Virus record (IMG/VR): IMGVR_UViG_3300029841_000009
Coordinates: 1-64,000 of that record
Reading direction: 5' to 3' (one strand)
DNA length: 64,000 bases
Source: a virus
Taxonomy: Duplodnaviria; Heunggongvirae; Uroviricota; Caudoviricetes
Position numbers and translations under genes: made by a program. The notes beneath the pieces are model-generated. The model did not search any database and was not told the DNA's origin. It saw nothing but the letters and a program-made list of their open reading frames with translations. Shown here in pieces: positions 9,630-64,000 of this stretch (within the stretch, counting starts at the first letter, position 1; each line of letters starts with the position of its first letter).

Positions 9630-9650
9630 AAGTTTCTATACTCCTGCAAT

Positions 9651-9672
9651 AAAGGGGCCGAAGCCCCTTGTC
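9651..9672 (-). terminator. intra-operon rho-independent terminator / attenuator
   Basis: GC hairpin AAGGGGCTTCGGCCCCTT followed by TTTATT on the minus strand, between two structural genes. Confidence 0.4.
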
Positions 9673-9685
9673 TGATTCGCGAGGC

Positions 9686-10030: not shown

Positions 10031-10031
10031 C

Positions 10032-10469
10032 TTAACCAGTTACTTTTGAGCGGATCGGGTACGGCGTATTGGCATCAACATCCAGACTGATACCCGCAGT
10101 GAATTTGCCAGCCGTTAGTGGGCCAGTTGCGACGGAGTAGTTAACACGCAGATATCGCTGAACACCGGCAGGCACCTTTGCAGAAACAACTCGTTTACCT
10201 GCTGTCAGGGCGGTCTTTGCCAGTGCGCCACTATCATAAATAGTGGTCCATGAGCTGTTATTCTCACTCGTCTGCAACTGGATGTTTACAGTTGCATCAC
10301 CGCTTGCCGCGGCGGCTGCGTTAACCAGCGCCCAAAACTCAAGCGGGTAACCCACGCCGATATCACGACGTTTTCCGTCAATTGGACCGAGATCGATTAC
10401 GTCAGTAGAAGCCGCGGTATTCGTAACCGCCTGAGCTTCGGAGAACATCAACAGTTTGTCGGTGATCAT
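10032..10469 (-). CDS. hypothetical virion protein (possible capsid accessory)
   Basis: 145 aa, directly downstream of the capsid gene; Ala/Thr-rich, beta-rich-looking composition. Confidence 0.35.
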   Translation of the reverse strand: MITDKLLMFSEAQAVTNTAASTDVIDLGPIDGKRRDIGVGYPLEFWALVNAAAAASGDATVNIQLQTSENNSSWTTIYDSGALAKTALTAGKRVVSAKVPAGVQRYLRVNYSVATGPLTAGKFTAGISLDVDANTPYPIRSKVTG

Positions 10470-10520
10470 CTTCTTTCTCCATTAGTGGGTCTGTTACGAC
10501 CCACAGGTTAATAACAGGCG

Positions 10521-11513
10521 TTACACCACGCGGGCTTCTGTTTCCAGAAGCGCATCAGTTTCACGGATTGGTACACCACGGAATGAAGTCCACCACTCGC
10601 CTTCAGTCTCTTTTACGCTGATAGCCAGAGATGTTTTCTCCAGAGATTGCAGATCAAGAGCCTGGCCTACAGTGCGGTTCATGTAGAACACCGGGCGGCC
10701 CATGCCACGGTTTGGAATGCGATGTAGTGCTTTAACCATCAACTTCGCAATATTTGCGGCAGAGGATGGTTCTGAAATATTGCTGACATCGATGTTTGCA
10801 ATGCGAACAACATAACGCCAGTCACGCAGAGCAAGTCCGTTATCCCATTTGTAATGGGTGCGATAGCCTTCGTACTTGCCGCCATTAGCATCTTCCAGTG
10901 TCACCTGGCCTTTATCTTCCATCTGGATGCCAGCCTTCTGCCCTTTCGGGAAGATGCCATGCACGGTGTTTTCGCCCCACACCACTAACCAGATTGAGGT
11001 GTTATCTGTACCCGTGCCACCAGCATCAATGATGTTCTGAGCATTACCCGCAGACAGGCTGGAATAGCGGGAGGACAGTCCCATAAACTGCTGAGGGTTA
11101 ACGCTGGAATCACCATAAAACAGCGTCTGCGCCATCTGCTGATTCATCGCTTCAATAAATGCGCGGTCTTCAGACAGGCGGAATTCGGCGGTATTGCCGT
11201 TCAGATCAGCCAGTGACTTATCGACTTCCGCATAGGTTTCCAGCATGCCAACGGAATCGGTTACCTGCACTGTGGTTGATTTGCTTGGCTGTACGCCATA
11301 GTTCAGCAAACGCCAGGTAGCTGAAGGTAAACCAGAACGAATGGTGGTTCGGTGTCCGGTAGGAAGGTTCCCTTCGACAAAAGGCATATCCTGAAGGATC
11401 GGGTTAGTTTGACCGAGAAGCTCGATAATCTTATCGACTTTCCCGTTTGGATCGACGCGCTTACCCCAGTCAGCCAGCGTTAGCGCAGTTAAGCCTTTAA
11501 CAGCCATTGTCAT
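10521..11513 (-). CDS. major capsid protein
   Basis: 330 aa, follows the scaffold gene in the portal-scaffold-capsid order typical of T7/epsilon15-like podoviruses. Confidence 0.6.
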   Translation of the reverse strand: MTMAVKGLTALTLADWGKRVDPNGKVDKIIELLGQTNPILQDMPFVEGNLPTGHRTTIRSGLPSATWRLLNYGVQPSKSTTVQVTDSVGMLETYAEVDKSLADLNGNTAEFRLSEDRAFIEAMNQQMAQTLFYGDSSVNPQQFMGLSSRYSSLSAGNAQNIIDAGGTGTDNTSIWLVVWGENTVHGIFPKGQKAGIQMEDKGQVTLEDANGGKYEGYRTHYKWDNGLALRDWRYVVRIANIDVSNISEPSSAANIAKLMVKALHRIPNRGMGRPVFYMNRTVGQALDLQSLEKTSLAISVKETEGEWWTSFRGVPIRETDALLETEARVV

Positions 11514-11521
11514 TTCCTCTC

Positions 11522-12223
11522 TTATTTGCCATAGAGCACTTCGGCCGCACTACGCTGGCCTTCATTACCACCGGTGACCATGCCATCTTCAGACATCGCC
11601 TTTCCGATTTTCACGAACGTTTTGACCAGATCAGGGTGATTACCCAGCCCGGTGGTGTTCAGATATTCTTTGAGTTCAGGTGTCCCGAACTGGTCAAGCG
11701 CACGCTGTGCGGCGCTAAGGTTAGAAATCAACTTGTCGCCACCGATTTCTTTGTCGGCTTTTACATCCGCTGCCCACTGCTCGGTTGTTTTCTGCCAGGC
11801 TTCTGCCTGGCGCTGCTGAACACCTGCCAGAATCTTCGGATAAGCATCAACCAGCTTTTGCGCTTGCTCGTTGGTCAGGTTTAGTTCTCGCGCCACCGGC
11901 TCGAATTCCTTCAACGCTTCTGTATCCAGCTCTACGCCTTCGGCAGCCTGAAACTCGTACTTTTCAGGCGCACCCTCTGGTTTATCGCCGTCCTTTTTTT
12001 CATCCTGCTTATCGTTTTCAGGCTTTTTGTCATCAGCAGGTTTATCGCCATCAGCAACAGGTTGTGGCTTATCACCTTCCTGTTGTGATGGATCACCAAC
12101 TGGAGCAGGGTTATCACCTGCAGGCGCTGACGGTTCTGACGCAGCCGGAGCTGCTCCACCATCGACTGGTTGCTCATTGCAAAGACGGCGATACAGCAAA
12201 CGCTCAAATAAATTCATGATCAC
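11522..12223 (-). CDS. scaffolding protein
   Basis: 233 aa, highly acidic with a Pro/Asp/Lys-rich low-complexity N-terminal half; lies between portal and capsid. Confidence 0.55.
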   Translation of the reverse strand: MIMNLFERLLYRRLCNEQPVDGGAAPAASEPSAPAGDNPAPVGDPSQQEGDKPQPVADGDKPADDKKPENDKQDEKKDGDKPEGAPEKYEFQAAEGVELDTEALKEFEPVARELNLTNEQAQKLVDAYPKILAGVQQRQAEAWQKTTEQWAADVKADKEIGGDKLISNLSAAQRALDQFGTPELKEYLNTTGLGNHPDLVKTFVKIGKAMSEDGMVTGGNEGQRSAAEVLYGK

Positions 12224-12516
12224 TCCTGTTCACTGGCCTCTTTGGCCATCTTCAAATACTGTTCAGGGCAATGCGCCATAACGCGCTGAAACAGTTCCAG
12301 CGCCAGATTGCGTTGCCCCTCATTAAATGCCATTGCCATAGCGTCCATCGGTGAGATAGCGGAAAACACACGGCCTTTCTCCAGCACCGACCAGACAACG
12401 CGACGCCCCTGTTCACTGCTCATGACAAAGCGAATGTCATCAATTTCACGCTGTGCCATGTCACGTTGCTTACGGGCGTTTTCTTCTTTCAGTTGATCAT
12501 CTTCGTAATCTGTCAT
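12220..12516 (-). CDS. hypothetical protein
   Basis: 98-aa ORF overlapping the portal stop and scaffold start (translational coupling). Confidence 0.4.
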   Translation of the reverse strand: MTDYEDDQLKEENARKQRDMAQREIDDIRFVMSSEQGRRVVWSVLEKGRVFSAISPMDAMAMAFNEGQRNLALELFQRVMAHCPEQYLKMAKEASEQE

Positions 12517-14192
12517 TGTGATTGCCCACCCTGACCACTAACTGCATTCGCCATAGCTGACAAAACACTCGGATCCGAAGTTTTAGCTTCGCTTAGCGTC
12601 TTGGCACCCTGTGCCGCCGCCATCCCCATCGCCATCATTTGTTGCTGCTGTTGTTGCTGTGCCCGTTGCTGGCGAGCCTGCTCAACCTGTTCCTGCGGAA
12701 CAATGACGGTTGGAGACACTCCGGACATATCAGCGAATGCATCGATCGCCTGATCAACGTTGAGTTTGTCGAGAGCTTCTGGTTTCGCTTGCGCAAGTTG
12801 ACCAATGAAGTTAACCGTGGACGCCAGACTGGACAGGCCGATAGACTTCTGCGCCTGAGCCATGACGGAAATGTATTCGACCTTCAGGGGCATACCTTCC
12901 ATCACGTCTGGCGGTGGCGGCAGCATGTTTTTACGCACCATCATCGAGAAAGAGCGGTCAATGAGAGGATTAAGACATTCGTCGTTCAGACGCTCCAGAA
13001 CCGGCCCCAACATCAGAAGTTTTTCTTCTTTCATTTCGATCACCGCTTCAACAGGCATCGAGCGGGTATTGATGTTCTGCAACATCATGAACAGATCGAC
13101 AAAGTAGGCGCTGTTAATGATTTGACGAGTGTCCTGAATGTCTGCCACCAAATCTGCTGTACTGGGGTTAACCAGATAAGCAGGCCTGAAACCATCCTGA
13201 CCAGTAATCTGATCGATATACGTGATGTCGCCAGGAAGAAGGGAGGCACGCTGATTCTTGAGGGAAGTCGGAGCAACCATCGGCGGATTGGTGGCTTTAT
13301 CAATCAACTGCGACTTGCGCTTCTGGAGAAGCTGCAATGCCTTAACAGGTCCAAGCGCCAGCATACCCGGGCATGATGATCCATAAACATCTTCGCCGTT
13401 AACTTCCCAGCGCGGGGCCATAATTGGAAACTCATCGAATCCGGACTCACGCAACAACTTGTCGTTATCGCCACCAACCTCGTAATAAACCGATTTGAAT
13501 GGCTTGTTCTTGCTATCCAGCTTCGATGTATCGCGGTCAATGTTCGGGTAAACCGAATGCATCACTTCAATCCACTTCTCGTAGGTTCCGCTTTCCCACA
13601 TGCTTTTTACGGATTCGCTGACGTTATTTAGCCCGAACTCCTGAACAAGCTGACGAACAGTCATAGAGAACTTGCGAAAACAGGTGTCCACACTGCCACG
13701 AGGTGAGTTAGCCAGGTAGTAACTGCCTATCGGGAATGGCATTGTGCGAATGATGTCCTCGTCATCCTCCAGCACTGCCATTGCACCAGTGCTGTATGTG
13801 CCGAGGCTTCCGTATAACTGCGGCAGCGACTGATAGAGATTCGACTTATTGAACATATCGTTCATGCGGTTCTGCACCGCCTCAAGCCACAACTTAACAG
13901 GGCCATAATCCATCATTTCAGGATCTGGCGTAGCCAGGCGAAACCACGGACGCGCGGGGCTTGTGATGCCTGACATCATGCCGCTGGCGAGAGTGCGCGC
14001 CGCCATAGTCCCGGTCGAATCAATAATGCGTGTATTGCGTCGATCGTTACGGTTGACCTCAGAAGTCAGAAAGCGGGAACCACGCGGGTTGATGTAATCA
14101 CTCAACTCGCGCCAGTGCGGCTCGAACGACTGACGCTCGCTTTCAAGTTGTGCGAACTGTTTGTTCAATCGCTCTTTAGTTGTTTCCGCCAT
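12513..14192 (-). CDS. portal (head-tail connector) protein
   Basis: 559 aa, first large gene after the terminase; GGAG ribosome-binding site upstream of the ATG; Gln-rich C-terminus; size matches podovirus portals. Confidence 0.65.
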   Translation of the reverse strand: MAETTKERLNKQFAQLESERQSFEPHWRELSDYINPRGSRFLTSEVNRNDRRNTRIIDSTGTMAARTLASGMMSGITSPARPWFRLATPDPEMMDYGPVKLWLEAVQNRMNDMFNKSNLYQSLPQLYGSLGTYSTGAMAVLEDDEDIIRTMPFPIGSYYLANSPRGSVDTCFRKFSMTVRQLVQEFGLNNVSESVKSMWESGTYEKWIEVMHSVYPNIDRDTSKLDSKNKPFKSVYYEVGGDNDKLLRESGFDEFPIMAPRWEVNGEDVYGSSCPGMLALGPVKALQLLQKRKSQLIDKATNPPMVAPTSLKNQRASLLPGDITYIDQITGQDGFRPAYLVNPSTADLVADIQDTRQIINSAYFVDLFMMLQNINTRSMPVEAVIEMKEEKLLMLGPVLERLNDECLNPLIDRSFSMMVRKNMLPPPPDVMEGMPLKVEYISVMAQAQKSIGLSSLASTVNFIGQLAQAKPEALDKLNVDQAIDAFADMSGVSPTVIVPQEQVEQARQQRAQQQQQQQMMAMGMAAAQGAKTLSEAKTSDPSVLSAMANAVSGQGGQSQ

Positions 14193-14206
14193 TTCAATGA
14201 CTCCGG

Positions 14207-14413
14207 TTACTGACCAAGCAGCGTTTTACCGCTGGTATTAGCGGTTGATGTGTCGCCCTGAGAACCGGTAAGCAGCGTAGAACTACGACCAGCAGCAGCG
14301 CGACGGCGACGAGTTTCTTCGTCGCGGGCATCAACAACGGCGGCATCCTGCTCCTGTGGTGCTGCCTGAACTTCTGGTGTTGCAGGCACTGATGGTGAGC
14401 TACCCATGCACAT
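14207..14413 (-). CDS. small low-complexity ORF upstream of portal
   Basis: 68-aa Ala/Thr/Gln-rich ORF; weak coding evidence. Confidence 0.2.
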   Translation of the reverse strand: MCMGSSPSVPATPEVQAAPQEQDAAVVDARDEETRRRRAAAGRSSTLLTGSQGDTSTANTSGKTLLGQ

Positions 14414-14840
14414 ATCAATGACTCCGTACGCAATTAAATTATTACCAATTTAACCACATATGATTTATTTATCGTAGATAGTTGACATTTAACGCACAAA
14501 TTATTACCTTTCAGGTAACCAAAGAATTCATTCCGGTTACTAACCTGACTGGCTTGTCGTTAAATTGAACAGGTGGAGTGAGCTTTTATTTTGAGCAGTA
14601 CGGCGTATGGCACATGCGCCGATAGCGGTCTGGATACGTTTAAGGGGCACCCTCCCTGGCTGTGGCAAACGAACCAGGTAGCCGGAATGTGCAAGTCGAG
14701 CGGTTTTATTCCGCGCACGGGGATTCACCATCCCGGCGATTCGGTGTGACGCCTCGGAAGAGACGAGGGTACAACGATGAGAGCATTTATGGAGCCGCGA
14801 CAAAGTGTGGCGCCTTAACAGGCTAAGTGCTCTCAGCGTT

Positions 14841-14917
14841 GTGGCATTAGCTCAGTCGGACAGAGCAACCGCCTTCTAAGCGGTTGGTCGCAGGTTCGAA
14901 TCCTGCATGCCACGCCA
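14841..14917 (+). tRNA. tRNA-Arg (anticodon UCU), CCA-encoded
   Basis: Cloverleaf traced by hand: acceptor GTGGCAT/ATGCCAC, D-arm GCTC/GAGC, anticodon stem ACCGC/GCGGT with loop CTTCTAA, T-arm GCAGG-TTCGAAT-CCTGC, discriminator G and CCA; closely resembles E. coli argU. Confidence 0.85.
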
Positions 14918-15115
14918 GAATCACGCCTAAGGACCGTGATGCCAGAAGTTCCAGGTGCTTGGCGGTGATGGTTTCCCTTGAAGGACTATCACCACCCTTT
15001 TTACAGCAGGACGCCATTGCGATGACTTCATGCTGTAAACCAGTACAGCCACGGAAGGCATAACTCATTGCTTCCAGTTCGCCCGATTCGCCGGGCATTT
15101 TTTTAAGGTGAGATT

Positions 15116-15487
15116 ATGAACGACCAGCAAATCGAAAAAGAAATCGTTGAGAAAGGCAAAACGGCACCGCGCGTTACGCCAGACCATATCGAAGGCATTA
15201 TTGCTCAGGAGGCATATTTCACAGCAGAAGATGGTGCCTTTGGCAAAGCCATAAAAGAGAAACATACTGGCGGAGAGGTAAACTACCAGCCGCACGAATC
15301 ACTTTCTCTGCTGACGTTCTGCGTCCTGGTGCTGCGCAACGGCTTCACCGTCACCGGAGAGAGCGCCTGTGCAAGCCCGGAAAACTTTGATGCGGAAATT
15401 GGTCGGAAGATTGCCCGGCAGAATGCTGTAAACAAAATCTGGATGCTCGAAGGTTACTTGCTGAAGCAGAAGCTAAGCGAGCAATAA
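15116..15487 (+). CDS. conserved hypothetical phage protein (moron, same strand as tRNA)
   Basis: 123-aa ORF on the opposite strand to the flanking structural operon; followed by a hairpin plus T-run. Confidence 0.5.
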   Translation: MNDQQIEKEIVEKGKTAPRVTPDHIEGIIAQEAYFTAEDGAFGKAIKEKHTGGEVNYQPHESLSLLTFCVLVLRNGFTVTGESACASPENFDAEIGRKIARQNAVNKIWMLEGYLLKQKLSEQ

Positions 15488-15504
15488 CGCCGTGACATGT
15501 CACA

Positions 15505-15537
15505 ATCAGCCAGCCTATGAGCTGGCTTTGTTTTATC
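15505..15537 (+). terminator. rho-independent terminator
   Basis: Hairpin AGCCAGC-CTATGA-GCTGGCT followed by TTGTTTTAT just after the 123-aa ORF. Confidence 0.4.
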
Positions 15538-15577
15538 CTCACCAGAGGATATCAGCAGCATTATCCCATCCAGCGGA

Positions 15578-17053
15578 TTAAGCATAGGGATCGTAATCTG
15601 TGATGGCTTTGCCTTGCTGGTTCTGCTGCCCGGGAATTCGCAGACGCTTCGACACAGGGAACGCAAACGTCAGCAGTAGCGCATCGCCTTTACCAGGAGA
15701 ACGCCCAAGTCGCTCTTTGATATCTTCCTTCGGTTCGATAACGATTTTACCGTCCACGCGAACTTTGTACTCTGCCGTCGACAGGTCGTCCGCTGTTTCC
15801 TGGTCATCCAGCATGCCGCCGAGCCTCAGCCATGTCTTGCATGAGTTGAACATCTCCCCACGCTTGTTGAGCATCTGCGGGTCAGTAGACGCGCCACCGA
15901 ACGGAACAAGTTGCCATGTACGACCCCAGCCGTCACCGATTGACTTCAAACCGGTTCCGTAACCGAAGTCGATGAACACCGCGTCAGCCTGATACTGGTC
16001 TTCAAAGTCAGCGATACGCTTCGCCATAATCAGATCGTCGGTAGTCTTGTTGCCAGTCCACAGCACCTTACTGTGTAGCCCCTGCCGCAGGTATATCACC
16101 GCGTCATCAACGCCTGAATATGCCGGGTCAACACCGATTATCACCGGAGCATGTGCAACCTGCGCAGCGGTTACCACCCGTTTCATTGCCTCGTCAGTAA
16201 GACCGGTAGGGATAAACTGCAATTCAGATGCATCAGGGAATATGCCACGCACACGGATTTTAACGAAGTCGCTATCTTCCCCGTAGTCATCAACCCATTT
16301 CTGCAACTGCTGTTTGTTGGTGCCTTCCACCGTCCTGCTGTCAATCTGCGCAGTTTTCCAGCGGTGTTTGTATTTGCGGAAACATTCACGGAAACGCCCG
16401 GTGTTACGTGTAGGGTTTCCGAAAGCCACCCAGATAATCTCAGTGTCTTCGTCCGTTAGCGCACCCTCGGCAACTTCCCACACCAGATCCGCAATGTTCG
16501 ACGCTTCATCAAATACCACAATGATGCGTTTACGCTCGTTGTGTAGTCCGGCGAATGCCTCAGTGTTGTGCTCAGACCAGGGGATTGCGTCAGCTCGCCA
16601 CCGCTTGTCGTGCCCAGGGTCATTGCTGTACATCGCGGTAGCGGTACAGGTAAACCAGTCTTTCGTGATAGCAAGGTTTGACCACTTGATAATTTCCGGC
16701 CAGGTCTTCGTTCGTAGCTGGTTGTCGGTGTTGGCGGTCACCACGACCTTACAATCCTCGCAAGTGGACATGCCCCAGTTGATCAGCATTGAGATGAATG
16801 CGGATTTACCAATACCGTGACCAGAAGCACGTGCCAGCATAAGCGGCTGATATCGCGTCTCTGGATTCTGCAGGTGATCACGTATCTCTCGGAACGCATC
16901 AGCCTGCCACTGACGTGGGCCGGTGGCATGTGCCAGTTCAGTCCCCTCTTCCCCCCATGGGAACGCATAGAGGGCATAGCCAAGCGGATCGTGAGTGAAC
17001 CCTGCAATATCCTCGATTAACTGCTCTTCAGGAGATAACGCTGTATCTGTCAC
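15578..17053 (-). CDS. terL: terminase large subunit
   Basis: 491 aa; Walker A-like GHGIGKS, Walker B-like VVFDEAS, C-terminal nuclease-like region; overlaps the small-subunit gene. Confidence 0.8.
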   Translation of the reverse strand: MTDTALSPEEQLIEDIAGFTHDPLGYALYAFPWGEEGTELAHATGPRQWQADAFREIRDHLQNPETRYQPLMLARASGHGIGKSAFISMLINWGMSTCEDCKVVVTANTDNQLRTKTWPEIIKWSNLAITKDWFTCTATAMYSNDPGHDKRWRADAIPWSEHNTEAFAGLHNERKRIIVVFDEASNIADLVWEVAEGALTDEDTEIIWVAFGNPTRNTGRFRECFRKYKHRWKTAQIDSRTVEGTNKQQLQKWVDDYGEDSDFVKIRVRGIFPDASELQFIPTGLTDEAMKRVVTAAQVAHAPVIIGVDPAYSGVDDAVIYLRQGLHSKVLWTGNKTTDDLIMAKRIADFEDQYQADAVFIDFGYGTGLKSIGDGWGRTWQLVPFGGASTDPQMLNKRGEMFNSCKTWLRLGGMLDDQETADDLSTAEYKVRVDGKIVIEPKEDIKERLGRSPGKGDALLLTFAFPVSKRLRIPGQQNQQGKAITDYDPYA

Positions 17054-17727
17054 TGATTGCCATCCTGACGTTCTTTCAGTCTCTTCCTGGCTGCCGCTAT
17101 GCGATCAGCAATTGTCACATTCACATTAACATCCAGGCGTTCTTTGAATGCGTTGACGTCGACGTGCTTACCAATCAGTTCGAGGTTCTTCACCTTGTCA
17201 GGCCATTTAATTTTTTTGAGGATGCCAACCAGCTCTTTCTCGTCTCCACGGCCTTCGAACATGTCGGCCAGTTCGAAACCTGTCAGGTACTGCCGCCAGA
17301 CCTTAGGCCATTCCGAGACCGGCTTGATGCTCATATCGTCGTTGAGAATGTCAATCACGTCCATCTGGTCGATCTCCACCAGGCGCATGAGAACGTAATC
17401 AGCACTGACGCGCATTCGTTTGTTGCGCTCCTCCATCAACTCGGCAATCCGTTTCTGAATGCGTTCATCGCGCATCATGACACTGGCTTTAACTGCCGCT
17501 GTATTTGGGGAGAATCCTGCATTAATCGCAGCCTGAGTCTGGTTTTCAGGCGTTTTGATGTATGACTGGCAATAAGCCTCCTGCATTGCTGTTAGTGGCT
17601 TAAATTGCGTTGATTTGCGTTTATAGGTTTTAGGTTCAGCAGGCATCATAACCACCGTGGTAATAGTTACCGTTGTGGTAATAGTACCATGCAAAATAAA
17701 GCCGCCATAGTTGGCGGCAGTATTCAA
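17050..17727 (-). CDS. terS: terminase small subunit
   Basis: Motif QEAYCQSYIKTPENQTQAAINAGFSPNTAAVKAS typical of small terminase DNA-binding domains; true start may be the internal Met (MMPAEP). Confidence 0.6.
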   Translation of the reverse strand: MNTAANYGGFILHGTITTTVTITTVVMMPAEPKTYKRKSTQFKPLTAMQEAYCQSYIKTPENQTQAAINAGFSPNTAAVKASVMMRDERIQKRIAELMEERNKRMRVSADYVLMRLVEIDQMDVIDILNDDMSIKPVSEWPKVWRQYLTGFELADMFEGRGDEKELVGILKKIKWPDKVKNLELIGKHVDVNAFKERLDVNVNVTIADRIAAARKRLKERQDGNQ

Positions 17728-17767
17728 AACCCATCAAATTCATCATGCATAACCCACTCGTGACATG

Positions 17768-18121
17768 TCACAATATTAATTTCGTTTCATGCCAGCCTTT
17801 AGTCACCCAGCATTGCGAGTCACCATTACACGGGCATGAATTCACAGGAACTCTCTCGCCGCACTTACCGCAACGTTTTCTGCTGATCGATTTTATACGC
17901 CCGTGCACGCGCGCATCATCCTGGCGGATCAGTAACGCTATATACTCACCAAATTCGTAAGGCGCACGCCCGGGGCGACGTGTGGCACAGTTACGCTCCA
18001 GCATTTCAATTTCCTGAGCATCAAGCACAATCTCCAGCTTACGCACACCAGATGCAGCTTGTCTGGCTCTCTGAGCGGCTTTGCGCTCTGCTGCTGCCTT
18101 AGCCATTACCATATCCACCAA
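17768..18121 (-). CDS. hypothetical protein with Cys-rich C-terminus
   Basis: 117 aa, TTG start in the track; C-terminal CGKCGERVPVNSCPCNGDSQC looks like a zinc-ribbon. Confidence 0.35.
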   Translation of the reverse strand: MVDMVMAKAAAERKAAQRARQAASGVRKLEIVLDAQEIEMLERNCATRRPGRAPYEFGEYIALLIRQDDARVHGRIKSISRKRCGKCGERVPVNSCPCNGDSQCWVTKGWHETKLIL

Positions 18122-18191
18122 ACTTCACCAGACATGATTCTCGCAATCACTATCATCACCAAAGTGATAATCACAACTTTAACTGGCGGCA

Positions 18192-18569
18192 TCATTCACC
18201 ATCCTGCTCCGGCGGTTCTGGCAGCGGCATCCAGTGGGTTACCTCCTTGAGATACAGGTCTTCGCCACCACCGTCATCCCAAGTGGGCTTGCCATCATTA
18301 AACCAGTCGCCATATACGCCGACCTGAGTGTTGGGGATGCTTGGTGGGTAGTTGTTTTTAAAGTCAGCAGCTAACACATAGCATTGTCGCTCTCCCATTT
18401 CTGGCATTCGTTCACTACAGCTTATCCAACTCTCCGGAGTTACCGGAGAGTTGCCAGCCTCATACGCCACACGCATCCAGTGCATAAGCGTTTCAGTGCT
18501 CACACAGCCGCAATCAACATCAATTTTGCCGTGCTGCTGTTCCAGCCATTGCTCAAGCGTAGTGCTCAT
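18192..18569 (-). CDS. DUF551-like phage protein
   Basis: 125 aa; C-terminal VTHWMPLPEPP motif recalled as characteristic of DUF551. Confidence 0.45.
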   Translation of the reverse strand: MSTTLEQWLEQQHGKIDVDCGCVSTETLMHWMRVAYEAGNSPVTPESWISCSERMPEMGERQCYVLAADFKNNYPPSIPNTQVGVYGDWFNDGKPTWDDGGGEDLYLKEVTHWMPLPEPPEQDGE

Positions 18570-18799
18570 TTTTCATCCCCCCGATGATGCCATCTGCATC
18601 GCATCTCATAACACCCCCACTCAACACGAAAACCACATAGCCTGTGCAGATCCACCCACTTCTGCGCCATCGCTGGCGACGTGTAAATCACAGTGAATGC
18701 GTTATCTTCGTTGTCGATTTGCGTAAACGTCACTTTGTACAACAACCCACCGTCGACACATGCTGTGTTCAACGATTTATTGCTAATACCCTCAATCAT
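18566..18799 (-). CDS. hypothetical protein
   Basis: 77-aa ORF, 4-nt overlap with neighbours. Confidence 0.35.
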   Translation of the reverse strand: MIEGISNKSLNTACVDGGLLYKVTFTQIDNEDNAFTVIYTSPAMAQKWVDLHRLCGFRVEWGCYEMRCRWHHRGDEK

Positions 18800-19443
18800 T
18801 CGTACTCACCCCCCGCTGTTTTGAATTTGATCTCCGCTGCCTGCAATGCGTGTTCGACGTCGAAGCGGTCCAGCCATCCACCAAAGTGGTGCGGCATCAT
18901 TACCACCCGCTCACCGCTATTTATTGGGTGGCCCATACGGGGTTCGTAGCCGTCCGGTAACTCGACTTCCCGCGCTTCCAGTTCTGCTATGCGCTTCTCT
19001 GATGCTTCAAGTAACGCCTGCTTATCGCGTAGCGCTTCTTCCAGTTCAGCAACATGGCACTCACTATCAATAAGGTTGTTCTCTGCGGCTTCCAGCTCAA
19101 CACGCAGCTTCCCTACCGTTAGCGCAATATCCTCGTTCTCTTGGTCGCGGCGTTTGATGTATTGCTGGTTTCTTTCCCGTTCATCCAACAATGCCAGCAC
19201 GGTAACTGGATTGGCTGCGGCGATGAATTCAGCATTGGCCTGCTGTTCCATTTGGAAATCTTCATCGAAACCGCTTTCAGGATGCGCTCCTTCAATTCTG
19301 CAAATGGGAAGATATCCAACAACTTCACGATGAATTAGCGCATCACCAGCATCAAATCTCTCCTCTCCATATTCTAGCGACCACACACCACACGTTGCTT
19401 TTTCTGCCTTAGCACGCAGTGCCTGGTAATTAATTTCGCTCAC
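18796..19443 (-). CDS. Ead/Ea22-like protein
   Basis: N-terminus SEINYQALRAKAE and coiled-coil middle; GTG start preceded by AGGAGG. Confidence 0.6.
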   Translation of the reverse strand: MSEINYQALRAKAEKATCGVWSLEYGEERFDAGDALIHREVVGYLPICRIEGAHPESGFDEDFQMEQQANAEFIAAANPVTVLALLDERERNQQYIKRRDQENEDIALTVGKLRVELEAAENNLIDSECHVAELEEALRDKQALLEASEKRIAELEAREVELPDGYEPRMGHPINSGERVVMMPHHFGGWLDRFDVEHALQAAEIKFKTAGGEYE

Positions 19444-19684
19444 TGGCTGCCTCCTGCTTTTCTGCCTTCAACACCATGCGAGAACCATCATCCAGCTCCC
19501 ACACTATCTCACCACCTTCAGCCATGACCAGTTGCCACACCAATTGAGCAGCCTCATTGGTAACATCACGACCTGGATCATTGCCAACGCGCATACGTCC
19601 ACCTTCAACATCGCGCATTTTTGCCAGCATGATAGTTTTTGATAGCGGTGAAAAACCAAGCTGTAGTCGTGCTGAATTACTCAC
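19430..19684 (-). CDS. hypothetical protein (probable GTG start)
   Basis: Track ORF 19430..19717; AGGAGG-N6-GTG at codon 12 suggests the real start at 19684; the junction sequence is shared with the neighbouring Ea22-like genes. Confidence 0.35.
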   Translation of the reverse strand: MSNSARLQLGFSPLSKTIMLAKMRDVEGGRMRVGNDPGRDVTNEAAQLVWQLVMAEGGEIVWELDDGSRMVLKAEKQEAASERN

Positions 19685-20277
19685 TGGTTGCCTCCTTTGC
19701 GAAGCTGTTCCGCCCATTCTTCAAGGGATTTCTCCGCATATTCACCGGACAGGCCATCAATCGGATGCGCTTCATTAACCAACTCTTCTTTCGCTGACAA
19801 AATCATGCGTGTAACGTCGAAAACTTCACGCAAAGACTTATTGATAAATCCGTGATTGAACGCAGCAGCAAGACGGCTGGCGGTATAGTTAATCCCCTCG
19901 TTGCGTGCTTCCGCACGAATTTCAGCCAGAAAAGCATCGGTAGCTGGAGTTTCGCTGTGGTGTAGGGCATCATTGATAATCATTGCAGCAACACCAGCCT
20001 GCCCTGCATCCGTGACCGACACATGCTCAAGAGTTACGGCCATTGCGTGTTTCAGTCCGTCGTTCTCCACCACCAGCGCAGCGAGATTAGTCTCATACTC
20101 CGCAATTCGGCACATAGCATCGATATTTGTGTCCTCCAGCCGCTTAATTTCATCCAGTAGCGCCAGCACAACCTGCGGTGTGACCTTCATACGAAACGCG
20201 AGCAATTTTTGCGGCGTTGCCACGACTTTTATTGCTTCTGCTGCCTCACGCAGTGCCTGGTAATTAATTTCGCTCAC
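19681..20277 (-). CDS. Ead/Ea22-like protein (second paralog)
   Basis: Track ORF 19681..20307; AGGAGG-N6-GTG start at 20277 gives the N-terminus SEINYQALREAAE, paralogous to 18796..19443. Confidence 0.55.
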   Translation of the reverse strand: MSEINYQALREAAEAIKVVATPQKLLAFRMKVTPQVVLALLDEIKRLEDTNIDAMCRIAEYETNLAALVVENDGLKHAMAVTLEHVSVTDAGQAGVAAMIINDALHHSETPATDAFLAEIRAEARNEGINYTASRLAAAFNHGFINKSLREVFDVTRMILSAKEELVNEAHPIDGLSGEYAEKSLEEWAEQLRKGGNQ

Positions 20278-21688: not shown

Positions 21689-22756
21689 TCAGGCTTTCAA
21701 TAGCGATTCTTTCAGATATCGGGCATCAGCCAGGGCATTTGGAGTAATCTTGCGAACCCATGCATTACGGGTTGGACTCCACTTAAAGGCGCGTGATTTA
21801 AGCAGCGAACGAATGTTTGCCTCTGGTTTGCCAGGGAAATAAAACAGGATGCGGTTATCCTCTGGATCTATCTCCATAGAAAAGTCGTCGTATTCTTCGC
21901 GCTGTGCTCCTGTTACAGACTTGACCGATTCAAGCTCCTTAATACGGCTCTGTAGTCGTTTGATCTCGGCGTTATTGTTGCTCAGTGCGTATGAAGGGAA
22001 TCCGATGTGCCCACAGAAATCTCCGGCCAGTAACTCTTTGGCTTCGCTTTCTGTAAACCTGAGATCGATTAATGCAGAAAGCTGCTGTAATTGGTCTTTT
22101 TTGTATTTGCGAATGGCCTTATTTGCGGCCTTCATTTTGACGTGTGACTTCATGCAGCCTTGCAGCTTACGAAGCAACTTAAATAGCGCATCAGGATCAT
22201 CAGACGAAATTCCATTACGACCAACACCTGCGGCTTTGCTCTCGTAGTGTGATGCTTTACTTTCGCATTCAACAAACGCTTTTCTTAATAACGCATCAGC
22301 TTTAGACAAACGGCGGCGATGGCCTTTCGCGCTATAATGGTCAACTAAAATCGGCTGGCCTAACGGGATCACATCCAACAGGTCATGCGCTCGCTTATGC
22401 GCTACCGCACCTTCTTTTCTGGCTTTTTCTGCACGAGCAATATATCGGGCAAGACGCGCGTTCTGGCGTTCCTGATAGGTGTTTACGTAATCATCTCCGC
22501 GCTGCTGCTGTTCAAGCCATGCTTTGCGCAGATCTTCTGTTACGTCCACCAGCTCCGCAGGGATACAACCAGTTTGGGCTTCATAAGAGTAACCATCCTC
22601 ATAGATACGCCCATCATCTTCAACAAAGAAAAAGGTTTCGTGCTCATCGCTTTTGACCATACGACCATTAACATGGCGTAATAGGTAGCCAGTATCAGTG
22701 CTTAACAGGCTGTTAGGGTTGTTGATCCAGTCAGAAATAATTACTTGTTTATTCAT
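21689..22756 (-). CDS. conserved hypothetical protein
   Basis: 355-aa ORF driven by promoter-leader repeat copy A; followed by hairpin CGGCGGGA-N4-TCCCGCCG. Confidence 0.5.
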   Translation of the reverse strand: MNKQVIISDWINNPNSLLSTDTGYLLRHVNGRMVKSDEHETFFFVEDDGRIYEDGYSYEAQTGCIPAELVDVTEDLRKAWLEQQQRGDDYVNTYQERQNARLARYIARAEKARKEGAVAHKRAHDLLDVIPLGQPILVDHYSAKGHRRRLSKADALLRKAFVECESKASHYESKAAGVGRNGISSDDPDALFKLLRKLQGCMKSHVKMKAANKAIRKYKKDQLQQLSALIDLRFTESEAKELLAGDFCGHIGFPSYALSNNNAEIKRLQSRIKELESVKSVTGAQREEYDDFSMEIDPEDNRILFYFPGKPEANIRSLLKSRAFKWSPTRNAWVRKITPNALADARYLKESLLKA

Positions 22757-22870
22757 CAGATTTCTCCGGTTTAACCAGGGCGGGTATCGCTCGGTTTCGG
22801 GTATAACCTTAGGAAATTTTTTCCCACCTGTAAAGCACTTTTTATATAAATCTATAATTATATATTTATA
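22757..22870 (-). repeat. promoter-leader repeat, copy A (TTTACA-17-TATGGT with shared 5' leader)
   Basis: About 110 bp nearly identical to 32755-32870 and 63334-63449; lies immediately 5' of the 21689..22756 start. Confidence 0.7.
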
Positions 22871-32376: not shown

Positions 32377-32757
32377 TTACTTAACGAGGAATAAAAATGG
32401 TTTATCGTTCGGCGGTGTACTCGGGGCTGGCTCGCTTTTGCTCATACGATCAGTGTACCAGGCCAGCTCCTTGTCAAAGTAAGCCTGATTAAAATAGGCC
32501 ATGAATGTGGTTTCAAATCCATAACGACCGCTAATACGCAGCATCTGATTGCCGTTCTCTGTTTCCAGATATACCTGGGCACGTTCCTGATTCTCCTTCA
32601 GCCAAGTTAAAGCCTCGTCGCACGAGGACACACGATACTCATCATCGTAGCCGTCATCGATGCGGCTTGAAGAAGAACGGCAAATCACGCCAACAGAACC
32701 AGCCAGGATAGTTTGAATTTTAAGGAAAGCGTTTTTGCGGATTTTAATCATGCTCAT
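32377..32757 (-). CDS. hypothetical protein (cargo of promoter-leader repeat copy B)
   Basis: 126-aa ORF starting right at the repeat. Confidence 0.45.
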   Translation of the reverse strand: MSMIKIRKNAFLKIQTILAGSVGVICRSSSSRIDDGYDDEYRVSSCDEALTWLKENQERAQVYLETENGNQMLRISGRYGFETTFMAYFNQAYFDKELAWYTDRMSKSEPAPSTPPNDKPFLFLVK

Positions 32758-32870
32758 CGGGTTATCTCCGGTTTAACCAGGGCGGGTATCGCTCGGTTTC
32801 GGGTATAACCATAGGAAATTTTTTCCCACCTGTAAAGCACTTTTATATAAATCTATAATTATATAATTCT
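32755..32870 (-). repeat. promoter-leader repeat, copy B
   Basis: Nearly identical to 63334-63449 and about 95 percent to 22757-22870; contains TTTACA-17nt-TATGGT and a GGAGA ribosome-binding site. Confidence 0.7.
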
Positions 32871-32919
32871 ATGAGCACAAAAAAGCCCCTTTGCAACAGG
32901 GGCTTATCATTCGTTCTGA

Positions 32920-60845: not shown

Positions 60846-61462
60846 ACCTCCCCAGCCAGCAATGCGGATACAAATCCGATATAGCTGCCATTATCATCAA
60901 CATAACGAGACACCGCGCAGTCAAAACGATCCGCTTCCTCATCCGTTGCCGGGATTTTATGACCTCCAAATGACAGGTACTGAACTTTTACGCCTGATTT
61001 GGCCTCATCCTTCTCAAATGGGATATCCATACCCTCTGTGTCATCGTAGACTGCCGCACTCAATAAGTTATCCAGTTCGCGCTGAGTAAAACCAATTGAG
61101 TCCAGAGCAAAATCATCGGCCGCAAGATCTGCAAGCTCCGCGCTTAACAACTCTTCATCCCAACCAGCATTCAGCGGAATACGGTTGTCGGCCAGACGAT
61201 ATGCCTTCTTCTGATTCTCCGTTAGCCCAGCCAGAACAATGCAGGGAACATCATCCATCCCCAACTGAGTGGCCGCAGCAATTCGACCATGACCAGCAAT
61301 TACAACGTTGTTCTCGTCTATCAGGATCGGATTAGTCCATCCGTACTCCTGTATGCTGGCAACAATCTGATCTACCTGCTCCACGGAGTGTGTGCGAGCG
61401 TTCTTTTCATAACCAATCAACACAGAAAGTGGTAAAGAAACCACATTAAGATGTTTTGTCAT
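60839..61462 (-). CDS. ParB-like nuclease N-terminal domain protein
   Basis: 207 aa; ...NPILIDENNVVIAGHGRIAAA...; about 60 percent identical to 57582..58172 over the N-terminal domain. Confidence 0.6.
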   Translation of the reverse strand: MTKHLNVVSLPLSVLIGYEKNARTHSVEQVDQIVASIQEYGWTNPILIDENNVVIAGHGRIAAATQLGMDDVPCIVLAGLTENQKKAYRLADNRIPLNAGWDEELLSAELADLAADDFALDSIGFTQRELDNLLSAAVYDDTEGMDIPFEKDEAKSGVKVQYLSFGGHKIPATDEEADRFDCAVSRYVDDNGSYIGFVSALLAGEVC

Positions 61463-61696
61463 GCCGTTTATCCGCTAAAATCCCCTCGCTTGTGCAAGCA
61501 AGTGGGCCTCGGTTTGTATCCACGGCACCCTGTGGGTATGAATGACTGTCGTCAGGTCGCAACTGACGGCGGTCGCCCACCTTCCAGTAATAAAAAAGCC
61601 ACCAGCATTAACTCCACAGCGAGCAGGAGTTAATGAGGCAGCTTTGGTTTGCGCATTATCGCAGCCCCTGATTAGCACAAGAGCTGCTGTAATGCG

Positions 61697-62107
61697 TTAC
61701 GCAGGGATCAAACAGATGTGGCCGTTATTTACCTCAATACGGGAATATTCCGGCTTACCATCCACGATTCCGGTAATGACAAGTTCGCCATCAGGCGACC
61801 ATTCTTCTTTGTCGTCTTCAAGTACCGCGCCTTCTGGCAAATCAATACAGGCAAAAACAGGGCAGCCAGGATGACGTTTATCCTCCATCGCAATCAGCAT
61901 CGACTCACCGAACCACTCTGTGGTAGCACGGCCATCAGCCGCCTGATAGTGAATCAGATACTGGTTTTCGCCATTTGCATACTGAGCACGGGCTTGAACT
62001 TCTCCCCACTCTTCACTGATACGCATTGTTACCAGTTGGGATAATTCAAACTTAAACGGAACAGACTCTGCACCAATGGCAATCGGTTTATCTTCTTTCT
62101 TTTCCAT
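61697..62107 (-). CDS. hypothetical protein
   Basis: Internal Met (MEKKEDKP) with an AGGTGA ribosome-binding site, inside track ORF 61697..62176; a hairpin terminator lies upstream. Confidence 0.4.
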   Translation of the reverse strand: MEKKEDKPIAIGAESVPFKFELSQLVTMRISEEWGEVQARAQYANGENQYLIHYQAADGRATTEWFGESMLIAMEDKRHPGCPVFACIDLPEGAVLEDDKEEWSPDGELVITGIVDGKPEYSRIEVNNGHICLIPA

Positions 62108-62156
62108 AACATCACCTGAAAATAAAAAGCCCCGCGACACCGCGAGGCTGTAAGAG

Positions 62157-62309
62157 TTACTTTCGATATAAATCAAGGCGCATTTGCTCCCGCTTAAGCC
62201 GAAAAGCCCTCTGCGCCACTAAGATGCGCCACAGGACACCAGCGATAACCACCAGCGAGATACAAAAACACACGGCCACAACCATCAGAAAAATGCCAAC
62301 ACCATTCAT
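62157..62309 (-). CDS. small membrane protein (50 aa, not in ORF track)
   Basis: Hand translation gives MNGVGIFLMVVAVCFCISLVVIAGVLWRILVAQRAFRLKREQMRLDLYRK; ATGA start/stop overlap with the upstream 70-aa membrane ORF. Confidence 0.35.
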   Translation of the reverse strand: MNGVGIFLMVVAVCFCISLVVIAGVLWRILVAQRAFRLKREQMRLDLYRK

Positions 62310-62518
62310 GAAACTATCCATTCTTCAATGAATATCTCCAGTAATGTCAAGAGATACGCCGTCCCCAGCGCGGTTCCTACCGATATAGCTAAGACAAACC
62401 TCAAAGATAACGAGGTGTCTTTCGCTTTTCTCCAGACGTAAGCGCCAGCTAGAAATACCAACAAATCTCTTATTGGAAGCGGAAACCAGAACAAATCACT
62501 CGGCATAAGCACGATCAT
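62306..62518 (-). CDS. small membrane protein (70 aa, two predicted transmembrane segments)
   Basis: Hydrophobic segments LLVFLAGAYVW and FVLAISVGTALGTAYLLTLL. Confidence 0.4.
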   Translation of the reverse strand: MIVLMPSDLFWFPLPIRDLLVFLAGAYVWRKAKDTSLSLRFVLAISVGTALGTAYLLTLLEIFIEEWIVS

Positions 62519-62795
62519 CTTCCGCTGCTGATTTACATGCCGCAGTTACTGATATATTGATAACCGGTGCGCTAATCGTGATGGACGACGCTGTCGGTTG
62601 ACGCGATATAACTGAACGATGGCTATCAATGAAGTCCACAATCTCATTCAGGCACTCTTTAGCTGCCTCATCGTGACTTTTTCCGTATGCTTCATGGAGG
62701 ACTTTCATCCTCATCATTGCTCCGTCACATATAGTCGAAAGCGCGTAAAGCACATCACTAACCGCCATTTCTTTTTTGGTGCTTGTCGAAGGCAT
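62496..62795 (-). CDS. hypothetical protein
   Basis: 99-aa ORF preceded by a hairpin terminator of the upstream operon. Confidence 0.4.
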   Translation of the reverse strand: MPSTSTKKEMAVSDVLYALSTICDGAMMRMKVLHEAYGKSHDEAAKECLNEIVDFIDSHRSVISRQPTASSITISAPVINISVTAACKSAAEDDRAYAE

Positions 62796-62869
62796 CCCAT
62801 GTTCTCCTTTGTCTGGATGTAAAAAAGCCCCGGCAATTGCCGAGGCTCGTTGTTCGTTATCGTTACGGT

Positions 62870-63070
62870 TTAATGCTCGCGTCGTCCGGCGACAACTTCG
62901 GATTTGTATTTCAGGTCGCCCAGCAAGAATTGCAGTTTAAGCATCTTTGCCGCCGTGTAGTTCCCTGATTCCACAACCTCTTTCATGAGGTCATAAACGG
63001 CCGCTACATCATCAGCCAGGAACTCTTTGCGTTGCTGCTCAGTCGCACGTTTGAAGGAAATACGCATCAC
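62870..63070 (-). CDS. hypothetical protein (second gene of repeat-C cassette)
   Basis: 66 aa; ATGA overlap with the upstream gene; hairpin plus T-run downstream. Confidence 0.4.
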   Translation of the reverse strand: MMRISFKRATEQQRKEFLADDVAAVYDLMKEVVESGNYTAAKMLKLQFLLGDLKYKSEVVAGRREH

Positions 63071-63336
63071 TCATCATCTCCTGCCGCACATACAACCTCA
63101 CAAAAAAAATCAGCAGAATGTTTCTCCTTGAACGAATGACGCTCAAAACCGCACTCAATATCAGGCGCAAAAACATCCACCACATACGGTCTTTCAGAAT
63201 GTTTGTTTTCCCAACGATAAACCGTAGTGACGTTGAAATGTTTTAACGCTTCACGGAACTCAACGCTGCCAGTCAGGTTTTTTGAGGTCAGGTATTGCAG
63301 GAGGTTTTTTACTACTTCACGGTCTTGTACTTTCAT
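63067..63336 (-). CDS. hypothetical protein (first gene of repeat-C cassette)
   Basis: 89-aa ORF starting at the repeat. Confidence 0.45.
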   Translation of the reverse strand: MKVQDREVVKNLLQYLTSKNLTGSVEFREALKHFNVTTVYRWENKHSERPYVVDVFAPDIECGFERHSFKEKHSADFFCEVVCAAGDDE

Positions 63337-63449
63337 CGGGTTATCTCCGGTTTAACCAGGGCGGGTATCGCTCGGTTTCGGGTATAACCATAGGAAATTT
63401 TTTCCCACCTGTAAAGCACTTTTATATAAATCTATAATTATATAATTCT
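63334..63449 (-). repeat. promoter-leader repeat, copy C
   Basis: Nearly identical to copy B across about 115 bp including the start-codon context. Confidence 0.7.
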
Positions 63450-64000
63450 ATACCACTTGCCAGAGAGCATCATGCAACTGGATACTTCCATTGCACTGGT
63501 TGCCCCAGCCATGCCAACCATCAGGTAAATCACCGCGAGCAAACAGCTCAATACGAGGAACATCACCTAACAGCCTTACCAGCTTGTCACGAACCACATC
63601 AGGCTTCCGAGAATGCTCCAGACGAGGCGATGTAAACGACTGAATGATCCCCGCATCAAGGCGGGTCGGCAATTTGCCTTTTACCGCAAACAAGCAATCT
63701 TCACTGTTTGCACGAGTCATATGCCCCATCCCCATCACCAGCTTATCTGGTTGTCGGCTACCACATTTGTTCCATGTGAAGCCCTTCATGGTCATAAGCC
63801 TGAATCCCCATGCTTTCACCACCAGCAACGCTTCTTCTGGCTGAGTCGGAACCCACCACATGGCCAACAAACACGATTCAGGATTAGCAAGCTGCCAGAC
63901 AGGAATACGAGCAATATCCTCAGCTTTCATCGTTGGATACTTAAAACCAGCTCCACGATTCCCATCCTTACACTTATCTTTGTATTCCCAGGGGGGATCT
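63448..64000 (-). CDS. MT-A70-family N6-adenine DNA methyltransferase (5' end beyond window)
   Basis: Track ORF 63448..63930 stays open in frame to the window edge, where the upstream codons read DPPWEYKDK (the catalytic DPPW motif). Confidence 0.6.
   Translation of the reverse strand, partial: DPPWEYKDKCKDGNRGAGFKYPTMKAEDIARIPVWQLANPESCLLAMWWVPTQPEEALLVVKAWGFRLMTMKGFTWNKCGSRQPDKLVMGMGHMTRANSEDCLFAVKGKLPTRLDAGIIQSFTSPRLEHSRKPDVVRDKLVRLLGDVPRIELFARGDLPDGWHGWGNQCNGSIQLHDALWQVV

Follow-up and report, generated by a model that had tools for sequence, protein, structure and literature searches.

What is the role of two small, overlapping open reading frames (ORFs) for hydrophobic proteins that lie near the end of a phage sequence with no endolysin gene beside them? 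The question concerns positions 62157-62518 of the 64,000-nucleotide stretch analysed here (IMG/VR virus record IMGVR_UViG_3300029841_000009, Caudoviricetes; hereafter the window). An earlier note, made from the sequence alone, described a translationally coupled pair of membrane proteins of 70 and 50 amino acids with their own terminator and proposed a holin/antiholin-like pair, a membrane toxin module or superinfection exclusion genes. The pair was found to be the distal part of a three-gene cassette, pX (p99), p70 and p54, encoded on the minus strand. Judged by their sequence evolution, p70 and p54 are real genes, since they are open in all finished plasmids that carry them, show a coding pattern of substitutions and have distant homologues in synteny. 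Our favoured reading, which is a tentative guess, is that they form an inner-membrane exclusion or conflict module, resembling superinfection exclusion and acting outside the lysis machinery. The features of the locus are the following.

62496..62795, minus strand: pX (p99), which opens the cassette; 99 amino acids, preceded by a strong Shine-Dalgarno sequence (AAGGAG).
62306..62518, minus strand: p70, 70 amino acids from ATG 62518 or 68 amino acids from GTG 62512.
62157..62321, minus strand: p54/p50, 54 amino acids from ATG 62321 or 50 amino acids from ATG 62309.
62306..62309, minus strand: ATGA overlap, read from the sequence, of the p70 stop codon (TGA, 62308-62306) with the ATG of the 50-amino-acid form (62309-62307).
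62316..62322, minus strand: AATGGAT junction, where the codons for the p70 C-terminal 'EWI' double as the 'MD' start of the 54-amino-acid form.
62118..62149, minus strand: intrinsic-terminator-like hairpin (stem 62149..62128) and T-run at the end of the cassette.
62819..62848, minus strand: terminator-like hairpin (stem 62848..62825) and T-run, 30 nucleotides upstream of the pX start.

The core of the earlier description was confirmed: two small coupled membrane-protein genes precede a terminator, as supported by the ORFs, their overlap, the hairpin and the hydrophobicity of the products. The ATGA overlap between the 70- and 50-amino-acid ORFs is likewise present once read on the minus strand, and no endolysin lies in the neighbourhood in the window. 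Some points need amendment. The 50-amino-acid size of the second ORF agrees with the call of the NCBI annotation pipeline PGAP, but an in-frame ATG at 62321 gives 54 amino acids and a 16-nucleotide overlap, and it is this form that the ORF tool lists. The terminator is a strong 3' hairpin, but the pair does not stand alone. The three ORFs overlap head to tail in the window, and because the pX stop overlaps the p70 start region and a second hairpin precedes pX, the unit is best written as hairpin-pX-p70-p54-hairpin. What the earlier description had missed is the strand, the link of the pair to the gene upstream and the facultative nature of the 70-amino-acid partner.

From about 19.4 kilobases (kb) to 64 kb, the window aligns collinearly with Escherichia plasmids that are circular, non-mobilizable and 47-50 kb in size, for instance NZ_CP032259.1 and pATCC25922_4 of strain ATCC 25922. 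Plasmids of this family carry repA, parA, an XRE repressor, early genes, a lysis cassette, methyltransferases and ParB-like genes, along with a GpA-type terminase, lambda-like head genes and a contractile tail; the ~48-kb family of the pATCC25922_4 type consists of phage-plasmids. The family also includes three phages of Yersinia pestis, vB_YpM_39, 41 and 44. Two of them, vB_YpM_41 and vB_YpM_44, are on deposit as complete phage genomes (host Y. pestis EV76-CN), which suggests that these two are viable. In the literature, no named phage-plasmid group was found for the family; the group checked, that of pSLy3, belongs to the SSU5 supergroup, and other named groups were not checked. The cassette occupies a variable cargo slot between the lysis genes and the ParB/terminase genes.

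The ParB_N gene of the family was detected in 70 of 5,426 complete E. coli genomes (about 1.3%), and 69 of these 70 carry the cassette region. In tblastn searches, p54 was recovered as one uninterrupted piece in 59 of 59 plasmid records (58 from Escherichia or Klebsiella and one from Salmonella salamae). In the same way, p70 was uninterrupted in all 59 plasmid records that carry it, with a coverage of at least 80% in 58; one record has an in-frame deletion of 10 codons and one is a Salmonella plasmid, at 47% identity. Homologues of p70 and p54 with 29-47% identity were observed at the same position in four other lineages, namely L021/L027 (which matches Salmonella plasmid NZ_LN890526.1), L022, L030 (IMG/VR uncultivated viral genome) and Salmonella salamae CP053324.1. 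There they sit after pX and before a p136-like gene and ParB_N. In L030 and CP053324.1, p54 follows pX directly and p70 is missing, so that p54 is the constant partner of pX and p70 a facultative one.

An exhaustive HMMER search with a p70 profile against 1.8 billion representative proteins retrieved P0028 (67 amino acids, 9e-12) and P0029 (72 amino acids, 7e-8). Their genes occupy the corresponding slot of the related elements L021/L027 and L022, in each case with a p54 homologue behind them that overlaps. By BLASTP, p70 matches its L022 homologue with an E value of 1e-16 and p54 matches its own with 4e-10; in a profile comparison, the L030 p54 had an E value of 3e-13. Among 13 distinct alleles, the ratio of nonsynonymous to synonymous polymorphism (pN/pS) of p70, read in its own frame, is 0.47, and of its 25 variable core codons 14 show synonymous changes alone. 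The overall pN/pS of p54 is about 1.2 over the same number of distinct alleles; its second codon positions are conserved, the replacements in its transmembrane segment are all hydrophobic for hydrophobic (12/12) and its tail is almost invariant. These data bear on the idea that the ORFs, one or both of them, opened by chance within a variable spacer and are not functional genes, an idea that is largely refuted and that we regard as hardly credible. It could draw on the fact that RefSeq PGAP never annotates p70, on the weak Shine-Dalgarno sequences of the window allele and on the modest codon-position bias within the close lineage (variable sites 11/10/19 for p70 and 10/4/9 for p54). However, both frames are open in all finished plasmids over up to 25% amino acid divergence, the sole deletion observed is in frame, and the syntenic protein homology extends to the four other lineages with E values down to 9e-12.

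The AlphaFold model of p70 is a helical hairpin (H11-31 and H37-67) with a predicted local distance difference test (pLDDT) of 80 and a predicted template modelling score of 0.58. Apparent free energies of membrane insertion (dG) were computed with Hessa-scale values. Residues 40-58, in helix 2, make up a marginal transmembrane segment (dG +0.4; -2.4 in L022), and the N-terminal hydrophobic segment, helix 1, is not predicted to insert on its own (dG +4 to +8). Helix 1 holds a conserved R/K-D/N pair, and the best-conserved stretch of the protein, NLLvFLAGAYVW-(R/K)K...LS.(R)F, corresponds to helix 1 and the lysine-rich turn; the C-terminus is short and acidic. As to the start, position 62512 is GTG or ATG in 13 of 13 alleles, giving 68 amino acids, and ATG 62518 is confined to alleles of the p99 type. 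In alleles with a pX of 151 amino acids, the codon at 62512 sits 2 nucleotides past the pX stop, with an AAGGA Shine-Dalgarno sequence 7 nucleotides upstream. In addition, the nucleotides of the p70 centre (62360-62470, minus strand; from helix 1 through the turn into the first part of helix 2) are near invariant across alleles that differ elsewhere, which could reflect a recent sweep or an extra constraint at the RNA level. A weak hairpin was also observed inside p70, at 62416-62398 (-11.2 kcal/mol, z -3.2).

The second protein, p54, has a short N-terminal stretch of acidic character, then a single helix of strong hydrophobicity, and ends in a basic tail; its net charge is +5. The apparent insertion dG of its transmembrane segment is about -4 to -5 kcal/mol. 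Following the positive-inside rule, p54 is predicted to be a bitopic membrane protein with its N-terminus outside and its C-terminus inside, the tail being cytoplasmic. This conserved basic tail reads RILVAQRAFRLKREQ... and contains the motif R-I-(L/F)-V-x-Q-R...(K/R)-R-E, the best conserved part of the protein in most lineages; L030 keeps only the K-R-E part. The 50-amino-acid form is annotated by RefSeq as a hypothetical protein (WP_001523048.1 and WP_001013684.1).

Both p54 starts in the window are plausible from the sequence of the relatives. L022 keeps only the upstream start, the single start of L021 and L030 aligns with the internal Met of the window, and in allele L017 a shifted p70 stop makes an ATGA overlap with the upstream p54 ATG. 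The ATGGAT start context is also found in L021, L022 and L030, the last of which keeps it despite having no p70. In the lineages that have p70, AATGGAT serves both the 'EWI' end of p70 and the 'MD' start of p54. The dual ATG itself (62321 and 62309, four codons apart) is limited to the lineage of the window, and the extra residues of the 54-amino-acid form add acidic charge, not basic.

Natural variants of p54 were also encountered. Allele P0022, on 25 contigs, is a knock-out caused by a 13-nucleotide tandem duplication that shifts the frame, and a 1-nucleotide deletion is common to phages vB_YpM_41 and vB_YpM_44, whereas vB_YpM_39 has an intact p54. A direct repeat, GCTGGTG...GCTGGTG, lies within p54 (62225-62250, minus strand; GCTGGTGGTTATCGCTGGTG), and this short repeat accounts for the recurrence of the duplication allele. 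At loci L005 and L006 (positions 1163-1447 of each; NZ_CP023368.1 and NZ_CP195359.1), the sequence downstream of p54 is replaced. The protein has there a different C-terminus (…REQLRSGCVSFKSMR), followed by a fragment of a tail-fiber-assembly pseudogene and by another gene of 141 amino acids, and both small ORFs are left unannotated by PGAP. The absence of p70 from two lineages and the p54 knock-outs in deposited phage genomes suggest, at the level of gene content, that the cassette is an accessory, non-essential module.

The first gene of the cassette encodes a soluble protein. It matches phrog_8319, a PHROG of unknown function, at 2.5e-66, and it is modular: relatives have 99, 123, 151, 201, 246/260, 251 or 323 amino acids, with a variable middle. 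All variants have a helical hairpin at the N-terminus, and all but the 151-amino-acid one have a 'SITI(S/N)AP.V.I' tail. In a single-sequence AlphaFold2 model, helices H12-37 and H41-64 were obtained with a pLDDT of 66, and the tail had low confidence. The middle of the long variants has a weak, winged-helix-like match to IscR (E 0.1), and the N-terminal domain weakly matches DUF1804 (E 0.003) and PHROG 756, 'DNA binding protein' (E 0.02), all three below significance. These properties lead to an explanation in which the basic tail of p54 and the turn of p70 anchor or regulate pX at the membrane for a task internal to the phage, such as regulation or a DNA step near packaging. It would fit with the position of p54, always directly after pX or pX-p70 in five lineages and translationally linked to it, with the fact that the most conserved parts of p54 and p70 are their predicted cytoplasmic segments, and with the weak pX matches to the IscR winged helix-turn-helix, DUF1804 and PHROG 756. 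On the contrary, every one of these pX matches is below significance, and pX has been cut to 99 or 151 amino acids in Escherichia by internal or terminal deletions while p70 and p54 stayed intact, so that the membrane proteins do not seem to need a full pX. We consider this explanation rather unlikely.

How the three genes are expressed was examined from the sequence. In the window allele, the Shine-Dalgarno sequences of p70 and p54 are weak or misplaced, and the pX/p70 and p70/p54 junctions, as well as the pX/p54 junction of CP053324.1, overlap or abut. The exception is L030, where 15 nucleotides separate pX from p54 and p54 has its own Shine-Dalgarno sequence. Serial termination-reinitiation is thus the likely mode of translation. 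The hairpin at the cassette end (62149..62128) has 9 base pairs, 7 of them GC, followed by TTTTTATTTT, with a folding energy of -16.8 kcal/mol (z -5.1 versus shuffles); a terminator-like hairpin begins at the p54 stop codon in L022, L027 and L030 as well. The upstream hairpin (62848..62825; -18.8 kcal/mol, z -4.75) is also kept in these three loci. The two bracketing hairpins are alike (AGCCUCG...CGGGGCUUUUU) and may be copies of one element.

No sigma-70-like promoter was found between the upstream hairpin and pX; promoter-like sites occur on the locus at chance frequency and none is suitably placed. The cassette is accordingly predicted to be transcribed only by read-through of the upstream terminator-like hairpin. 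The closest candidate source is the following.

63332..63452, minus strand: nearest upstream promoter-like element (TTTACA-17-TATGGT), one of three copies of a 115-nucleotide repeat.

That this element gives rise to the read-through transcript is only an inference. The ~115-nucleotide repeat is present in three minus-strand copies, at 63332-63452, 32754-32873 and 22752-22864, each directly preceding a gene (p89, a DUF3560 gene and a 126-amino-acid hypothetical gene, respectively). Every copy comprises an AT-rich upstream part, two TATAGA motifs, the TTTACA-17-TATGGT element, an identical 5' leader, a Shine-Dalgarno sequence and an ATG, so that the three look like one regulated promoter serving three operons. 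In addition, a ~240-nucleotide non-coding element lies between two terminator hairpins upstream of pX in L022 (559-805), L027 (2932-3190) and L030 (2327-2560). It is more conserved than the neighbouring genes; the window does not contain it and keeps only the hairpin 62848-62825. Either a small RNA gene or a regulatory leader, since deleted in the Escherichia lineage, could account for this element. The L022 spacer had no Rfam match and showed no excess folding energy (z -0.31), and no Rfam family was found in 61000-64000 at E <= 0.4.

Searches for relatives of known function gave little. Nothing significant was obtained for p70 and p54 with Pfam, PHROGs, NCBIfam and PADLOC profiles, the NCBIfam matches being sub-threshold and confined to the transmembrane segment (e.g. 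CcmD, E 0.035). PADLOC-DB defence components gave no match for pX, p70, p54 or p136 at E <= 1. Among 50,697 phage records, tblastn found only three Yersinia phages of the same family; word-indexed protein searches returned close relatives only, and a profile scan of one genome per species (GTDB) returned no relative. A PDB sequence search gave only chance transmembrane matches, and Foldseek found nothing at E <= 0.001 with the p70 model against BFVD or the p99 model against PDB. Finally, no literature on the p70, p54 or pX proteins was found.

The locus stands out by its divergence. The mean identity to the window over eleven related loci is about 94.5% for the cassette versus about 99% for the flanking genes. 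For ParB_N, 69 of 70 genomes reach 99% identity or more, and between lineages whose ParB_N genes are about 80% identical, p70 and p54 are only about 40% identical (29-47%). Mosaic breakpoints were located at about 62505 and about 62184: the p70+p54 core has been swapped as a block between different pX 3' ends and downstream sequences, and this exchange yields three alternative p54 C-termini. No coupling was detected between the alleles of p70 helix 2 and those of the p54 transmembrane segment, which are reshuffled by recombination. In L032, a more distant relative (ParB_N 59% identical), the slot holds unrelated genes. Taken together, the locus appears to be a hot spot of divergence and recombination.

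It is this divergence relative to the flanks, with the mosaic borders, the fast change between lineages and the unrelated genes in the L032 slot, that speaks for the exclusion or conflict module that we tentatively favour. According to this proposal, ribosomes that finish pX would re-initiate on p70 and then on p54, and small amounts of both proteins would enter the inner membrane in a fixed proportion. Their conserved positively charged segments would face the cytoplasm, and the module would hinder competing phages or mobile DNA in entering the cell or becoming established there, or would interfere with a membrane target of the host. Several points weigh against it. No similarity to a known exclusion, defence or toxin protein was found in PADLOC, PHROGs, Pfam or NCBIfam. 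Classical exclusion genes need to be expressed in the lysogenic state. For this cassette, expression in the plasmid state is doubtful, because the unit begins right behind a terminator and a search for a dedicated promoter found none. Moreover, its GC content (0.44-0.49) does not deviate from that of the flanks, so that the test of composition for a foreign origin was negative, and weak constraint alone could give the pN/pS of about 1.2 seen in the transmembrane segment of p54. The fast divergence itself could stem from low constraint on small transmembrane proteins and not from an arms race. A more elaborate version would see in pX-(p70)-p54 an undescribed defence or exclusion system of phage-plasmids, in which pX possibly binds DNA, the cationic tail of p54 is an effector or docking site, p70 is an optional modulator and the hypervariability reflects an arms race; this version we hold to be fairly improbable.

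The same proteins could also be a toxic membrane effector of the abortive-infection, Rex-like or toxin kind, in which pX senses or regulates and p54, with or without p70, depolarises or permeabilises the membrane. A small hydrophobic protein with a cationic tail does resemble membrane-active toxins, and p54, with 50 or 54 amino acids and one strong transmembrane helix, has the dimensions of the small hydrophobic toxins of type I systems. Its expression seems tightly limited (upstream terminator, weak Shine-Dalgarno sequence, translation by coupling only), and the natural knock-outs, P0022 on 25 contigs and the 1-nucleotide deletion in two phages, could reflect a fitness cost. Nevertheless, p54 is intact in 59 of 59 finished plasmids, and there is therefore no strong counter-selection against it. 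No PADLOC or Rfam match was obtained, and signals for an antisense RNA or a promoter at the locus did not exceed chance. The organisation is also unlike that of a type I toxin-antitoxin pair. Such pairs have their own promoter and a long 5' untranslated region. The classical type I layout was not seen for p54, which is chained to upstream ORFs, and a toxic effector in the wider sense is distinctly unlikely.

The proposal of a holin/antiholin pair was not supported. The reference plasmids have a separate lysis cassette, which is complete and sits some 3 kb upstream of the pair (with respect to transcription), in sequence that the window does not reach. It contains Phage_holin_8 and Phage_holin_3_7 genes, a GH108 endolysin, an i-spanin of 92 amino acids and an embedded o-spanin of 69 amino acids (lipobox LIASC), and at least one terminator separates it from the pX-p70-p54 cassette. 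The search for holin families that had been suggested as a check was run on Pfam and PHROGs at E <= 1 and gave no match for p70, p54 or their distant homologues. The existence of this full lysis cassette elsewhere and the frameshift of p54 in the two Yersinia phage genomes leave a holin/antiholin role unsupported; in addition, the pair is not beside an endolysin, its dual start is not conserved and p54 appears dispensable.

A milder form of the same idea would make the proteins accessory factors of lysis timing (holin-, antiholin- or releasin-like) placed away from the main lysis cassette, as are P1 lydA/lydB. Both are small membrane proteins, and they share the orientation of the lysis cassette about 3 kb downstream of it. 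A predicted transmembrane helix and a charged hydrophilic C-terminus are both present in p54, which also has two in-frame starts four codons apart in the window; p70 has a marginal helix and a short acidic C-terminus. But the lysis cassette already has two holin-family genes, the endolysin and both spanins, and is set apart by the terminator. The dual start, moreover, is not conserved in L021, L030 and L022 and adds acidic residues, no holin-family profile matches, and two deposited phage genomes have p54 frameshifted. A role in lysis timing is therefore very unlikely. A spanin was also considered for p54 and rejected: its Cys is not part of a lipobox and gives way to Trp or Gly in some alleles, its tail is basic and predicted to be cytoplasmic, and the true spanins are elsewhere.

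Some observations concern the surroundings of the cassette. The downstream gene (61697-62176, minus strand) has a mechanical ORF of 159 amino acids from TTG 62176 that runs over the terminator and the end of p54. The sensible start is that of PGAP, ATG 62107, which has a GGTGA Shine-Dalgarno sequence and gives 136 amino acids. The product, p136, belongs to PHROG 1935 (unknown function), and its 3' half forms a second local divergence peak, at about 95% identity. At the other end of the window (1-19700), the first ~19.4 kb have no match to the 49.9-kb reference plasmid and represent the structural module of another phage. This part contains a Terminase_2 small subunit, a large-terminase-like ORF of 491 amino acids, a T7-type portal (PF12236), a GP7 major capsid protein, an internal protein with an SLT domain and tRNA-Arg(tct) at 14841-14917. 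The join lies at an ead/Ea22-like gene (18796-19443), and the window is either a hybrid or a cointegrate, or else the product of two pieces joined during assembly.

The element that carries the cassette is a widespread phage-plasmid of about 48 kb in E. coli, including reference strain ATCC 25922, and in Salmonella, and within it p70 is a conserved gene that RefSeq annotation systematically misses. If the exclusion or defence module is true, it would be a new system of small membrane proteins and would explain the divergence hot spot; if it is false, the locus would add one more pair of accessory membrane proteins to those of phages. The presence of the element in ATCC 25922 makes the cassette easy to test.

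Among known systems, the closest comparison is with the small inner-membrane superinfection-exclusion proteins of phages, such as T4 Imm and Sp, HK97 gp15 and P22 SieA. Like these proteins, p70 and p54 are short, phage-encoded, predicted to reside in the inner membrane and apparently dispensable for phage growth. Their genes are lineage-restricted and fast-evolving, and sit in a cargo slot between conserved modules with a terminator after them. Unlike them, p70 and p54 have no sequence or profile similarity to such proteins, no detected promoter of their own and no known exclusion phenotype, and they are chained to an upstream soluble pX with a terminator directly upstream. Of the exclusion proteins compared, HK97 gp15 and SieA are named in two articles (PMC3594210, PMC10883804).

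With holin/antiholin pairs (lambda S105/S107, the S21 pinholin, P1 LydA/LydB), the pair shares a size of 50-70 amino acids, one or two hydrophobic helices, the charged C-terminus of p54 and the overlap of the genes. It differs from them by its distance from the endolysin, the missing profile match and the separate lysis cassette of the element; unlike holins, p54 appears dispensable in deposited phage genomes and p70 has a short, acidic C-terminus. In the same way, p54 is reminiscent of type I toxins (Hok/Gef, TisB, Ldr) in having at most 60 amino acids and a single transmembrane helix, but it has neither an antisense RNA nor a dedicated promoter and is translated by coupling in an operon. The C-terminus of Hok is periplasmic, whereas p54 has a long conserved cationic tail predicted to be cytoplasmic.

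Lambda RexA/RexB offer an analogy of architecture only, in that a soluble protein, here pX, is encoded beside a membrane component in a temperate element. There is no homology; RexB has four transmembrane helices and rexAB is driven by the prophage maintenance promoter. Finally, the cassette recalls the morons of lambdoid phages, such as lambda bor, by its slot between the lysis cassette and the packaging genes, its terminator boundaries and its variability among relatives. It departs from them by having no detected promoter and the same GC content as its flanks, and Bor is an outer-membrane lipoprotein. Set beside these systems, p70 and p54 are a new and largely unannotated family pair among the small accessory membrane proteins of phages.

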